DNA from: Candidatus Falkowbacteria bacterium
GTDB lineage: Bacteria > Patescibacteriota > Patescibacteriia > CAIXNZ01
Length of the DNA stretch: 64,000 nt
Reading direction: 5' to 3'
NCBI GenBank assembly: GCA_963774955.1
Contig: CAVZGV010000005.1
Coordinates: forward strand, 30,495-94,494
Shown here: positions 6,677 through 12,076 of the stretch, piece by piece
How the letters are laid out: the number at the start of each line of letters is the position of its first letter
How positions within the stretch are numbered: the first letter of the stretch is position 1
Program-made: the position numbers and the translations under genes
Notes under the pieces: generated by a model
What the model saw: only the letters and a program-made list of their open reading frames with translations
Told to the model about the DNA's origin: nothing
Databases searched by the model: none

Positions 6677-7410
6677 ACCCCTCCTTGATTTACTTTTTTA
6701 TCGACTTTATCCAAACTTTCAATGAACCTTTGCCGCGTTTCCCTGGCATACGGATTGAAATTCTGCATGTCAAGAAAAAGTTGCCAAGAATCATTGGTCA
6801 CGGTTTCCATTACTCTTAACAAACGTTCAAAACCTAACGTGGTAATTTGTTGATCTTTAAAACCTACTTCCTCGAGTCCCCGACCGATAAAATGCACCAG
6901 GGATAAACTTTTAGCTGCCTGCTGGTCATGATCTTCGGGCGTGGTTTCAATTATCTTAACTTCCAGTTTATTTAAAATCTCTTTAACTTCAGCTAATCTG
7001 ACGGGACTAATTCTTAATGGACATAAAACCCACTGCAAATCCTTGGTTCCGTTTTTGGCGCTGTCCGGACCGAACATGGGATGAGTAGCCATAATTTCAT
7101 TGTCAGCGGAAATATTTTCCCGTAACCATTGACTGGGAAAAAATTTAACTGAACAGACATCCATGACCAAAGAGCCTTTTTTCAGCAATGGTGCGATTTC
7201 CTTTATCTTTTCATCGGTTGCAGATATTGCCACTGACACAAAAACCCAGTCACACTGACAAACCTCCTCAAGTGTCGCCCATTTCAAACCTAATTCTTTA
7301 GCCTCGGCTGATTTATCTGAACGATTACAAACCAGAACCTCGGCGTAAGGCTTAAGTATCTTGGCTAAAAGTTGTCCGAACCGGCTAAAGCCGATAATTC
7401 CGATGGTCAT
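6673..7410 (-). CDS. tyrA: prephenate/arogenate dehydrogenase
   Basis: N-terminal Rossmann motif IGIIGFSRFGQ and the overall TyrA-like layout. Confidence 0.8.
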   Translation of the reverse strand: MTIGIIGFSRFGQLLAKILKPYAEVLVCNRSDKSAEAKELGLKWATLEEVCQCDWVFVSVAISATDEKIKEIAPLLKKGSLVMDVCSVKFFPSQWLRENISADNEIMATHPMFGPDSAKNGTKDLQWVLCPLRISPVRLAEVKEILNKLEVKIIETTPEDHDQQAAKSLSLVHFIGRGLEEVGFKDQQITTLGFERLLRVMETVTNDSWQLFLDMQNFNPYARETRQRFIESLDKVDKKVNQGGV

Positions 7411-8968: not shown

Positions 8969-9361
8969 ATGGCTGATAAAGCGATCGATAAAGTGATCAG
9001 GGCATACCAGGAACGGAACTGGACTTATTGCGTGCGACCGCTTGGCGATAATCCGCCGACTGAACAAGCAATCATTACCCCGTACGTCTCTGATTCCGAA
9101 GAAGCCAAATTCAGAGCCTTGTACGACGGCTTTTCCGGAAAGTTCATTTTCCAGGATCTTGAACTTCTCAGTGCTCAACTGGAACATCCGGAATTGGAGG
9201 TCTATGGCAATAATCCCGGGATCAAAGACATCTACTTACTTACCGAAGACTGGGAAGGCCACCAGAAAGACAAATTGGCCCTTGCCTTCTTCGTCAAAAC
9301 GGCCCAGGATAAGAAAGCCAATAACCACTCAATCAGCGTTCTCTGGCTGATCGAAGTCTAA
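8969..9361 (+). CDS. hypothetical protein (cassette ORF A)
   Basis: 130-aa ORF with a strong SD (AAGGAGA) 7 nt upstream. Visibly GC-richer than neighbouring DNA. Confidence 0.5.
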   Translation: MADKAIDKVIRAYQERNWTYCVRPLGDNPPTEQAIITPYVSDSEEAKFRALYDGFSGKFIFQDLELLSAQLEHPELEVYGNNPGIKDIYLLTEDWEGHQKDKLALAFFVKTAQDKKANNHSISVLWLIEV

Positions 9362-9371
9362 TTACAATTTA

Positions 9372-9401
9372 CCCGCCCAAGCTTCTCGAAAGCACGGCGG
9401 G
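9372..9401 (+). terminator. terminator-like hairpin T1 (CCCGCC...GGCGGG), paralogous to T2
   Basis: CCCGCC-caagcttctcgaaagcac-GGCGGG with a weak T tract, about 80% similar to the terminator at 9948-9987. Confidence 0.35.
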
Positions 9402-9402
9402 T

Positions 9403-9455
9403 CTTCATCCCAGGACGGGATAATTTCAAGTAAGTTATTTTGTCCTGGGACGAGG
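9403..9455 (+). promoter_or_regulatory. conserved hairpin element H2 upstream of ORF 9557
   Basis: CTTCATCCCAGGAC-GGGATAATTTCAAGTAAGTTATTTT-GTCCTGGGACGAGG; the loop is identical to H1. Confidence 0.5.
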
Positions 9456-9556
9456 ACAATGTCCCTTAGACTTTACAGGCTTAGCTGGTCTGCCCAGCTA
9501 TTAAAACGGCTCTCTTAGGAGAGTTTACTACCCTATTTCATAGGAAAGGAAAAAAA

Positions 9557-9937
9557 ATGAAAAATTTCGGAAAGAACCTTCTCAAGGCTATCGGCATTTT
9601 CTTCACCGTCACTTTCTGTCTCTTCTTCGCTGGAGTAGCGGCACTTTCTGACATGGCCGTCCGGCTGGACCCAGCCTACAATGAAATGGAGCTTCTCCCA
9701 GGAGACGGGCTGGCAATCATTACCTTAGCTAGCCTTCAAGACTCTGATGGCGACGGCAGAAACGATCTGTGGGACTGCGCCCCCCAAGACCCGAATGTTT
9801 GGGAGGTCAAAACCTTGATCGAAAAGAAAAACGATTCCACACAGACACTGCATATATTATGGTCGTTTGATGGAGAAGCCTATGATGCGTATTTAACTCC
9901 ACCCACGGACATGTATCCGACCGAGGGGAAAAAATAA
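9557..9937 (+). CDS. hypothetical secreted/membrane-anchored protein (cassette ORF B)
   Basis: 126 aa with an N-terminal hydrophobic signal/anchor, preceded by a GGAAAGGAAA RBS. Confidence 0.5.
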   Translation: MKNFGKNLLKAIGIFFTVTFCLFFAGVAALSDMAVRLDPAYNEMELLPGDGLAIITLASLQDSDGDGRNDLWDCAPQDPNVWEVKTLIEKKNDSTQTLHILWSFDGEAYDAYLTPPTDMYPTEGKK

Positions 9938-9947
9938 TTTCCTCAAA

Positions 9948-9987
9948 CCCCGCCAAAAGCTTCTTGAAGGCTCGGCGGGTTTTTTTA
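9948..9987 (+). terminator. rho-independent terminator T2
   Basis: CCCCGCC-aaaagcttcttgaaggctc-GGCGGG followed by T8. Confidence 0.7.
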
Positions 9988-10011
9988 TTTAATGCGAATT
10001 GGTCAGACTTA

Positions 10012-10047
10012 TTTTACGGATGGACACACTTCAGTGTGTTATGGCTC
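10012..10047. repeat. left 36-bp direct repeat with palindromic core ACACACTTCAGTGTGT
   Basis: ttttacggatggacacacttcagtgtgttatggctc. It overlaps the transposase stop. The second copy is at 10598-10633, with 2 mismatches. Confidence 0.7.
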
Positions 10048-10589
10048 CCCTCATCACTTGGCGGTGTAAAATCTATCACCGGATACAAGTCAAATCTTTC
10101 ATATACTGTTTCCTCCCCATATTTTTCAATATGTTCATTAAAATCAGACCATTTGTAGTCTTTCATTTTAGAAACATAACCATGTTTAACCGGATTATGA
10201 TGATTGTAATTTACATGGGTCAAATAATTTCTTTCACTATCTAAAATGGTATCCCAATATTGCTCCCAAACTTTCCGTCCTTGGCAATTATCATATTTAT
10301 TTATTTTCCTTGAACTACTGCCATTAACTTGTTTTATAAATAAAGGCAATGCTTTGGCATTCTCAATATCTAAAACTAGCTGATAATGATTATCCAAAAT
10401 TACCCAAGAATCGCAAGTATAACCAAATTTATTTATAGCATTCATTAAACAATCATATAGTAACTGCTTTTTAAAATCATTATTGAAAAAATGAAGCCAG
10501 TCGTATGTCCTGACGGCGATAAAATACTTACTATTATCAAGCAAAACATGAGGGGGTCTATGTATATTTCTATGTTTAGGATATTCCAT
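10014..10589 (-). mobile_element. REP-associated tyrosine transposase (RAYT) / IS200-like Y1 HuH transposase, HuH degenerated to HYQ
   Basis: ...VWEQYWDTILDSERNYLTHVNYNHHNPVKHGYVSKMKDYKWSDF matches the RAYT/TnpA_REP C-terminal signature. The HuH position reads NHYQLVL. The track ORF uses a GTG start at 10613; the first ATG is at 10589. Confidence 0.75.
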
Positions 10590-10597
10590 AAAAAATA

Positions 10598-10633
10598 TTT
10601 TACGGACGGACACACTTCAGTGTGTTACGGCTC
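10598..10633. repeat. right 36-bp direct repeat (REP-like hairpin)
   Basis: tttacggacggacacacttcagtgtgttacggctc, same orientation as the left copy, just upstream of the transposase start. Confidence 0.7.
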
Positions 10634-10687
10634 TTCCGTATCTCCAAACAGTCCCCTAACAGACTAAAGTCTGTCCTTCCGGGTTAT

Positions 10688-12076
10688 TTATCTTACCCAG
10701 CCAATAACCTTTACAAACATGCCCAAGCACAACCACCAAAGCATAATGCCGAAATATAGAGTCCAAAAATAATGGTCAAAAACCATGAGCACTAAAATTG
10801 CAATTAAAATTGCCGTAAAGCCCAAAAACCAAAAATATTTTTCACGGTAAAATTCATGGATATCGCTAAACTTGAATAAACCGAAAACCTGGAGCAAACT
10901 AATCTGTTCATCAATTTTATATGTCCAGATGCGTCGCATGGCTTCAATAATAATTAGAATCAAAACTATAAAGCCAAAAATCCCCAGTTCAGCCGCAACC
11001 AATAAATAAACATTATGTACCGGCTGATATGAATAGCTGGGAAATTTGCTTAAGTCTTTATTATATAAAGCTAGGGTATAATTGCCCAGGCCGACTCCTG
11101 TCAGCCAATTATTTTTCAATAATTCCTTGGCCTGATCCAAATATTGCGCCCGCTCTTGCTGCGACTTCACTTCAAGACGGTCCTGGCTATTGATTCTGGT
11201 AAATAGCGGGCCGCGATAAATAATGCCCAAAAAGCTAAAAGTAATAATACCAATCAAGACCAAGGCTCCTAATTTACGTAAGGCTGTCGCATCTCTGGAA
11301 AAGCCTATAAAAATGGCCAGAAAGAAAAAAGCAATCGACAAAGACAAAAAGGCGCCTTTGGAAAAAGTAAAAAAAAGGCCGATCAAAATAACAGGCGCAC
11401 AAACCCAAAGTATAATTTTTTCCCATTGATGCCGGGCCAAAATTAAACTCACAACCAGCAACAAAAAACTGATAACTAAAAAACCAGCTAAAATATTGGG
11501 ATGAGGCAAAGAACCATAAGCGCGCAAAAGTCTCGATCCGGCTGTTTCTACCACTGAAACTCCCAAGGTTTGAGGCAATTGTTCGGCCATGCCCAGCCAT
11601 TTACTGGCCCAGACCTGCTGAGTAAAAAACTGATAAATACCCAGACCTGATTGGATAGTGCCGGCCAGGATCAAAGCGCCGACCAGCTTCAGATATCTGA
11701 ATTTGAAATTTATAGCCAGACAAAGCAGGCCCAAACCTTCCAGCATTTTCAATAAATAATACCAGGCGGCATTCTGATCAGGACTAAAGAAAATACTGAT
11801 AGCGGCGACGATTAACAGCGCTAAAAACAGGATGTAAAAATCCAAAACTTTATAATTCAAAAAAACTATTTCCCAATCCCGATTTAGCAACTTATAAATT
11901 AAGGCTAAAATCAAAATTAAAACCAATAAAACCTCCGTGGCATAAAGACTAAAAGTCAGATACTGACTATCCCCGTCACCCAGCATCCCATAATGCCAAA
12001 TCCACCTGGTTTGCCAGGGCAAAAGGAAAATAAAAAGATAAAACAGATATTCAATAATTTTGGCTAATTTGGTCAT
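10688..12076 (-). CDS. O-antigen ligase/polymerase-like (Wzy_C family) polytopic membrane protein
   Basis: 462 aa, at least 10 TM helices, and a ...AYGSLPHPNILAGFL... region resembling the Wzy_C H-x-N motif. Confidence 0.55.
   Translation of the reverse strand: MTKLAKIIEYLFYLFIFLLPWQTRWIWHYGMLGDGDSQYLTFSLYATEVLLVLILILALIYKLLNRDWEIVFLNYKVLDFYILFLALLIVAAISIFFSPDQNAAWYYLLKMLEGLGLLCLAINFKFRYLKLVGALILAGTIQSGLGIYQFFTQQVWASKWLGMAEQLPQTLGVSVVETAGSRLLRAYGSLPHPNILAGFLVISFLLLVVSLILARHQWEKIILWVCAPVILIGLFFTFSKGAFLSLSIAFFFLAIFIGFSRDATALRKLGALVLIGIITFSFLGIIYRGPLFTRINSQDRLEVKSQQERAQYLDQAKELLKNNWLTGVGLGNYTLALYNKDLSKFPSYSYQPVHNVYLLVAAELGIFGFIVLILIIIEAMRRIWTYKIDEQISLLQVFGLFKFSDIHEFYREKYFWFLGFTAILIAILVLMVFDHYFWTLYFGIMLWWLCLGMFVKVIGWVR

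Follow-up and report, generated by a model that had tools for sequence, protein, structure and literature searches.

REP-associated tyrosine transposases (RAYTs) and the repetitive extragenic palindromes (REPs) that accompany them, often as REP doublets (REPINs), are the best-studied example of a domesticated transposase living with its own non-autonomous elements. To our knowledge, they have been characterized almost only in Proteobacteria, where the REPs carry a GTAG tag. Here, we describe a RAYT/REP unit in a stretch of 64,000 nt, referred to as the window, from contig CAVZGV010000005.1 (positions 30,495 to 94,494, forward strand; assembly GCA_963774955.1), which is deposited as a Candidatus Falkowbacteria bacterium. 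An earlier note on this DNA had drawn attention to a RAYT-like gene with an atypical active-site motif, bounded by repeats that contain a hairpin. In the literature searched, no paper was found that joins RAYTs with Patescibacteria or the candidate phyla radiation.

The best-described relative is TnpA_REP of Escherichia coli. Its active site consists of Y115, the HUH motif H59-M60-H61, N119, H123 and E161, the second histidine of HUH being a metal ligand, and the protein requires a GTAG tag as well as a bulge in the stem of the REP (PMC3479197). A tyrosine in the context Y---NP is the signature of the RAYT class, and the descriptor of the largest REP survey demands GTAG or GTGG together with a GC-rich stem base (PMC6006769). 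Inheritance as a single copy that stays in place has been described for RAYTs and not for insertion sequences (PMC5581495).

The gene of the window is located on the reverse strand at 10014-10589 and encodes 191 amino acids (aa) followed by a stop codon; the enclosing open reading frame (ORF; 10014-10613, reverse strand) is real according to the ORF list, and the ATG at 10589 was chosen as start codon by homologue alignment. The proposal that the product is a RAYT-type Y1 protein held in profile searches, with 28.2 bits for Pfam Y1_Tnp (PF01797; cut-off 23) and 89.4 bits for the NCBIfam equivalog model REP_Tyr_transpos (NF047646; cut-off 80, E = 1.9e-25), whereas the IS200 model NF033573 remained at 17.5 bits against a cut-off of 55. 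E. coli TnpA_REP (4ER8) is the sole significant sequence match in the PDB (E = 4.8e-7) and also the top Foldseek match of the AlphaFold model (mean predicted local distance difference test, pLDDT, 86.4; predicted template modeling score, pTM, 0.80). The fold alignment to 4er8_A (E = 7.9e-11, TM scores 0.66/0.76, 178 columns) ranks above every IS200/IS605 TnpA, at an identity of only about 15%. TnpA_REP is thus the best match in both sequence and fold, and the likeness extends to the Y---NP helix, in which the catalytic tyrosine is followed by the ligands Asn at +4 and His at +8. In the pairwise alignment, YIYINPVKH of TnpA_REP corresponds to Y128-NHHN132-PVK-H136 of the window protein (10182-10208, reverse strand), so that Y128, N132 and H136 take the places of Y115, N119 and H123, and H59-M60-H61 corresponds to H68-Y69-Q70 (10380-10388, reverse strand; codons CAT TAT CAG). 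The homologue alignment likewise shows the class-2 (RAYT) Y---NP context and no IS200-type Y---Q, and the C-terminal extension typical of RAYTs is present. Since the second of the two metal-binding histidines of HUH was looked for and a glutamine found, the protein is classified as a variant RAYT and not as a plain member of the family.

In the databases, the gene is represented by the copy P0001 (176 aa), which equals 10014-10544 of the window and is called from an internal TTG (MLDNSKY...). This public call appears to be truncated by 15 residues, as the upstream ATG (MEYPKHRNIHRPPH...) is backed by all homologues.

The gene lies between two copies of a direct repeat at 10010-10047 and 10596-10633. 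Both contain ACACACTTCAGTGTGT with the palindrome ACACAC-TTCA-GTGTGT and can form a hairpin of 6-7 bp. The copies are 95% identical, both mismatches being transitions. The direct orientation, the two mismatches and the hairpin had been recognized in the earlier note, which gave the length as 36 instead of 38 nt; it was also right in placing the left repeat over the stop codon (10014-10016). Two repeats do bound the gene, but a third, inverted copy at 10657-10680 on the reverse strand had been missed. REP-A1 (GGATGGACACACTTCAGTGTGTTA; 10018-10041, forward strand), the core of the left repeat, scores 42.2 bits in a covariance model, forms a DNA hairpin of -4.4 kcal/mol (z = -2.7) and overlaps the RAYT gene at its last codons and stop codon. 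The final eight codons (NTLKCVHP) are the repeat itself in translation. A tail of about 14 residues is non-native and read through this downstream REP; residues 178-191 have a pLDDT below 50 and are predicted to be disordered. REP-A2 (GGACGGACACACTTCAGTGTGTTA; 10604-10627, forward strand; 40.8 bits, -5.7 kcal/mol, z = -3.6), the core of the right repeat, is situated 14 nt upstream of the ATG. REP-B (GGAAGGACAGACTTTAGTCTGTTA; 10657-10680, reverse strand; 42.8 bits) is inverted with respect to the A copies and differs from them by a compensatory swap of the central stem pair from C:G to G:C.

REP-A2 and REP-B are positioned tail to tail with a 29-nt spacer and form a REPIN-like doublet (10604-10680) in the 98 nt that separate the RAYT gene from a wzy-like gene. 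Either strand of the region 10596-10690 folds into a single long, imperfect hairpin (-14.8 and -17.4 kcal/mol, z = -3.6 and -4.6). In gene orientation, the arrangement reads REP-B forward, REP-A reverse, ATG to stop, REP-A reverse. Given the upstream REPIN-like doublet and the single downstream REP, an inverted pair therefore brackets the gene, as in other RAYT/REP systems (REPtrons). A 20-mer search returned three matches against 0.00 expected in shuffles, and the covariance model, which was built from 25 distinct copies, finds exactly these three sites in the window (40.8-42.8 bits), followed by a match of 11.8 bits (E = 0.83). A fourth hairpin-like match at 7378 on the reverse strand was rejected: it lacks the GGA tag described below, stays under the noise of the covariance model and falls inside the GxGxxG-coding part of a prephenate dehydrogenase gene.

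The REP consensus comprises 24 nt, GGA-W-S-G ACASAC TTYA GTSTGT TA, with invariant G1, G2 and A3 and seven pairs including a basal G.T. The GGA tag at positions 1-3 is separated by 2-3 nt from a perfect 6-bp stem, which is closed by the G.T wobble and carries a TTYA loop. In the stem, 98.9% of the cells are paired, and both partners have changed in three pairs; 0 of 500 shuffles attained the covariation score, which collapses when the partners are slid against each other. The stem variants of this REP are compensatory, and its structure is under constraint. In contrast to E. coli, where a GTAG tag is combined with a longer, bulged stem, the hairpin has neither a GTAG or CGTC tag nor an imperfect stem. 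REP recognition must therefore differ from that of E. coli. This REP would also fail the descriptor of the large survey mentioned above.

At orthologous loci, hairpin repeats bracket the gene wherever DNA is available. The RAYTs of these loci are 73-74% (L002), 70% (L016), 69% (L017), 68.5% (L036), 56% (L018), 54% (L042/L043) and 44% (L041) identical to the window protein. L002, L016, L017, L018, L036 and L042 all have a forward REP upstream of the ATG and a reverse REP that overlaps the stop codon or is 0-10 nt away from it; the end of the repeat itself supplies the TAA stop codon in L017, L018 and L042. At each locus, the copies on the two sides of the gene differ in subtype, with, for instance, ACAGAC in the forward and ACACAC or ACGCAC in the reverse one. 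The E. coli REPtron is similar in that a single-copy gene is bracketed by two hairpin subtypes in opposite orientation (compare the Y and Z REPs of bacterial interspersed mosaic elements, BIMEs) and in that REPs also occur away from the gene. The GGA-tagged hairpin of the window, its stem altered in a compensatory manner, was found at every examined orthologue of at least 54% identity. The tag is GGAAGG or GGAACG where the proteins are 68-75% identical, whereas orthologues of 54-56% have GGCATG and an ACAGTC stem. The hairpin of the 44% orthologue is a different one, but again has two subtypes. This drift of the REP with protein divergence is consistent with co-evolution of protein and hairpin. 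The number of REPs varies from 3 in the window to 8 in L036 and at least 12 in L002, and since it differs between collinear loci, REPs have been gained or lost since the lineages split. One further gene was noted in the Parcubacteria relative L046 (NusA 81% identical to that of the window): at L046:1470-2200, 3.4 kb from nusA, a different RAYT-like gene with the motifs HYH and GYIAGNPFKHG is flanked by the hairpins CCAGGGCTTTAGCCCTG and GCTCCTAAAGGAGC, indicating several RAYT/REP pairs in the phylum.

The REP also exists without its gene. It was found at 19 metagenome loci (GC content 31-54%), one of which encodes a RAYT and 18 of which do not. Patescibacteria-like contigs that are free of a RAYT carry the REPs as dispersed doublets, and in a Parcubacteria metagenome-assembled genome (MAG), a doublet is located between ligA and hpf (L004). 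In another contig (L008) of the MAG that contains L002, an array of the same REPs occurs between two unrelated genes. Recurrence at orthologues of at least 54% identity and dispersal in related genomes uphold the earlier view of the flanking hairpins as the REPs of a REPtron-like unit, and the RAYT/REP unit at this locus is genuine. When dispersed, the REP typically takes the form of a very compact REPIN, a doublet of 51 nt in which an ACAGAC and an ACACAC copy lie tail to tail with 3 nt between them. RAYT/REPIN systems of the Pseudomonas fluorescens type (Bertels and Rainey; RAYT Groups 2 and 3) share with it the inverted doublets able to form one long hairpin and a single-copy RAYT that is inherited vertically and evolves at about the rate of its housekeeping neighbors (PMC5581495). 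However, the doublets described here are much smaller and always pair ACAGAC with ACACAC, and the copy number appears low, nearer to the 12-14 of Group 1 and Group 4 RAYTs (PMC5581495).

Several side observations concern the surroundings of these hairpins. Each of the seven doublets with a 3-nt spacer is enclosed, at a distance of 5-13 nt, by an outer inverted repeat of 9-13 matched bases (L004:1290-1410, L020:470-590, L031:7010-7135, L033:3205-3330, L034:1-125 and 1275-1400, L035:1830-1955), a match reached by only 0-3 of 200 flank shuffles. In four loci the outer repeat is GGGCGAAAACGCCC ... GGGCGTTTTCGCCC; the others have different sequences with similar A-tract/GC arms. It is absent from the two doublets with a 10-nt spacer and from the window REPs, and its motif GGCGAAAACGCC is not enriched in the window (6 matches, 5.0 expected). 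Either the REPINs insert into terminator-like hairpin loops or the mobile unit exceeds the doublet. A longer palindrome, GGGGACACACTTCAGTGTGTCCCC, was found on eight contigs (L001, L003, L005, L006, L007, L010, L012, L013) of the Acidobacteria-labelled MAG JACRBC01 (64-68% GC) and at L011 and L015, usually just after a stop-codon-like context. It was rejected as the same REP: the core is shared, the flanks differ and the 8-kb loci contain no homologue of the window RAYT, and these hairpins were taken as unrelated or convergent. In the window, a scan of 9500-11000 for promoters and terminators gave sites no commoner than in shuffles. Two ORFs that gave no Pfam hits (8969-9361 and 9557-9937) have between them an imperfect palindrome (9401-9457; 26-nt arms, 77% complementary, 5-nt loop), whose sequence is not related to that of the REP.

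The glutamine in the HUH motif is genuine, as had been stated: in the alignments to relatives and to 4ER8, no gap placement brings a histidine back. A word-indexed search of 5.8 billion proteins yielded 16 relatives, of which the 12 closest (44-99% identity) all have HYQ and the next four (39-43%) HYH. With HMMER, a full scan through 1.84 billion cluster representatives produced 23,976 matches, and the best 150 were aligned with the first set. Within this alignment, HYQ is confined to 14 sequences, namely the window protein, P0001-P0012 and P0059; the other 153 relatives have His at the position of Q70 (148) or a gap (5), and HYQ in no case. All 14 sequences with this HuQ motif have Asn directly after the catalytic tyrosine, a residue found there in none of the others (Ile, Val, Leu or similar). 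Asn129 is thus specific to the HuQ clade and co-varies perfectly with HYQ; in TnpA_REP, by comparison, HMH is combined with Ile at this place. A neighbor-joining tree of 143 near-full-length sequences unites the 14 in a single split, on a short branch and without bootstrap. Y128, N132, P133 and H136 are invariant in the homologue alignment down to 44% identity, the Gln codons CAG and CAA are both in use within the clade, and pairwise comparison of the window gene with four orthologues gives a dN/dS of 0.09-0.25, a rough figure as dS exceeds 1. The RAYT gene is under purifying selection, and the change from His to Gln is a conserved, monophyletic trait coupled to Asn at Tyr+1. On these sequence data, HYQ looks like a trait that is fixed in a small lineage under selection, and not like a recent lesion. 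The substitution had been suggested to mark an inactive copy; given its presence in 14 of 14 clade members, the accompanying Asn, the invariant ligands and the low dN/dS, this view is not supported, and the window RAYT is more likely to be a variant that works than a copy that is dead. As a separate observation, several close HYH relatives (P0023, P0032, P0048, P0084, P0100 and others) are much longer, with up to 342 aa, and match the profile in two or three separate stretches, which indicates large insertions inside the RAYT domain; five long HYH relatives have no HuH column in the profile alignment.

His-hydrophobic-Gln in place of HUH is known from other proteins. In the Rep of duck circovirus, Mn2+ is coordinated by His52 and Gln54 of a HUQ motif and the protein is active (PMC9973303), and HUQ is conserved in Replitron transposases (PMC10288648). 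HUQ Reps of circoviruses and other circular Rep-encoding single-stranded DNA (CRESS-DNA) viruses and the Replitron transposases differ from the protein described here in belonging to the Rep class, with a YxxK motif III and often a fused helicase. As they represent a separate branch of the superfamily without detectable sequence relationship to the window RAYT, the substitution arose independently of HUQ Reps and Replitrons. No description of HUQ in a Y1 transposase or RAYT was found in a literature search that was incomplete.

The genomic context points to the host and to the mode of inheritance. The best named matches of the neighboring NusA are from Candidatus Parcubacteria (90% and 73%), Falkowbacteria, Buchananbacteria and "Patescibacteria group" MAGs, and the database entry of one HuQ-clade protein assigns it to Patescibacteria. 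L002, an 8-kb MAG contig, is collinear with 10.0-16.9 kb of the window, protein identities being 73% for the RAYT, 60% for a 320-aa gene product, 70% for YidC and 75% for NusA; a 462-aa Wzy_C gene adjoins the RAYT gene in this block. Because all genes of L002 are similarly diverged in the same order, the RAYT gene, which occurs once in the window, has stayed in place and diverged at housekeeping pace. More distant RAYT orthologues are located in other gene contexts. The orthologous site could not be followed in closer relatives by NusA, as L044 (90%) breaks before the RAYT locus and L046 (81%) is rearranged there. The MAG of L002 (CAZPVP010000035.1) and L008 (CAZPVP010000012.1) is labelled "uncultured Gammaproteobacteria bacterium"; L002 has 33% GC and shares its gene order with the Parcubacteria window for about 7 kb, the proteins being 60-76% identical, and the label is probably wrong.

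With a probability of roughly 0.6, we read the locus as the REPtron of a Parcubacteria genome, a RAYT/REP system that is present in a single copy and inherited vertically and whose transposase works like a RAYT, with Gln70 in place of the second histidine. By homology with E. coli TnpA_REP, the protein would bind a small single-stranded DNA (ssDNA) hairpin consisting of the GGA tag, 2-3 nt, the 6-bp stem with its G.T wobble and the TTYA loop, and would cut and rejoin ssDNA through a covalent Tyr128-DNA intermediate. A divalent metal would be held by His68, Gln70, Asn132 and His136, probably together with a C-terminal acidic residue. This activity may spread REPs and REPINs into intergenic DNA while the gene itself stays put. 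The catalytic competence of the HUQ site, the position of the cleavage and whether REPs are still mobile in this genome are matters of inference.

A number of points weigh against this reading. Glutamine in place of the second histidine could weaken or abolish metal binding in this scaffold, and two REP features on which binding and cleavage by E. coli TnpA_REP depend, the GTAG tag and the stem bulge, are missing here. The saturation of dS leaves the estimate of selection coarse. The REP copies used for covariation were partly collected by pattern and are biased to the consensus; the covariation of the stem is nevertheless backed by an unbiased check, in which the metagenome pattern GGACASACTTYAGTSTGTTA allowed four S/S combinations and 29 of 29 matches were of the two complementary ones. 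Furthermore, the covariance model found no REP in the window besides the three at the gene, and none was found in 25 kb from the two closer relatives L044 and L046. REP copy number in the source genome may therefore be very low, and mobility may have ceased.

The main rival is a catalytically dead RAYT that lost its nuclease activity through the exchange of His for Gln and has been retained as a REP-binding protein with specificity for sequence and structure, for instance to regulate itself or its neighbors or to protect hairpins, the dispersed REPs being relics of an active ancestor. The loss of a histidine that serves as metal ligand in TnpA_REP (PMC3479197) and the scarcity of REPs, with three in 64 kb and all at the gene, fit this explanation, and autoregulation would agree with the REPs that the gene has, in every locus, at its stop codon and in its 5' leader. 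However, invariance of Tyr128, Asn132 and His136 down to 44% identity is unexpected once catalysis has been lost, and Gln is a competent metal ligand in HUQ Reps (PMC9973303). In addition, the REP numbers of the collinear loci (3 against at least 12 in L002) and the near-identical doublets at unrelated loci imply REP turnover after the HuQ clade arose. We consider a dead binder unlikely, though it is the strongest competitor of the REPtron.

Far less probable is a minimal autonomous element of the IS200/IS605 type, about 620 bp long, with the direct hairpins at 10018-10041 and 10604-10627 as its ends. IS200/IS605 ends do carry subterminal hairpins on the same strand, as the nearly identical direct repeats do here, the Pfam match is to Y1_Tnp, and TnpA proteins such as those of IS608 and ISDra2 share the Y1 HUH fold (Foldseek ranks 2-31) and the recognition of ssDNA hairpins. 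Yet the protein fails the IS200 model and passes the RAYT model, has Y---NP and not Y---Q, and possesses the RAYT C-terminal extension. The gene is present in one copy in the window and in the same position next to the wzy-like gene in the 73% relative, with its neighbors equally diverged, whereas the hairpin is dispersed without it; in other orthologues, the flanking REPs are inverted and not direct. A decaying pseudogene with chance flanking repeats could account for the non-canonical motif residue and for a C-terminal tail that reads through a repeat. This explanation is already refuted by the conservation of the clade and the low dN/dS; the ORF is also intact, its model is confident, and the repeat, for which chance predicts 0.00 occurrences, is found again around all orthologues. 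The probability of a pseudogene is close to nil.

A wider proposal has, in our view, about even odds. According to it, a monophyletic RAYT lineage of Patescibacteria would have passed from HUH to HUQ, coupled to an Ile-to-Asn change next to the tyrosine, and would still be an active ssDNA transposase. In these streamlined, ultra-small genomes it would mobilize a REPIN that is unusually small, carries the GGA tag and consists of two subtypes. The transition would have taken place independently in the Y1 branch, parallel to those of CRESS-virus Reps and Replitrons, and the compact REPINs may have a preference for positions within an outer, terminator-like inverted repeat.

The protein combines a natural exchange of HUH for HUQ in a Y1 scaffold with a residue that may compensate for it. 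It is a test case for ligand exchange in HUH enzymes, and with its 24-nt recognition hairpin it is a possible candidate for a small, orthogonal HUH-tag. Rule-based searches that need GTAG or GTGG tags and a GC-rich stem base would miss this REP. The locus leaves the general picture of RAYTs unchanged. Compared with E. coli, it places the system in a host of the candidate phyla radiation with very few copies per 64 kb, and means that the RAYT/REP pair persists also in these bacteria with tiny genomes.

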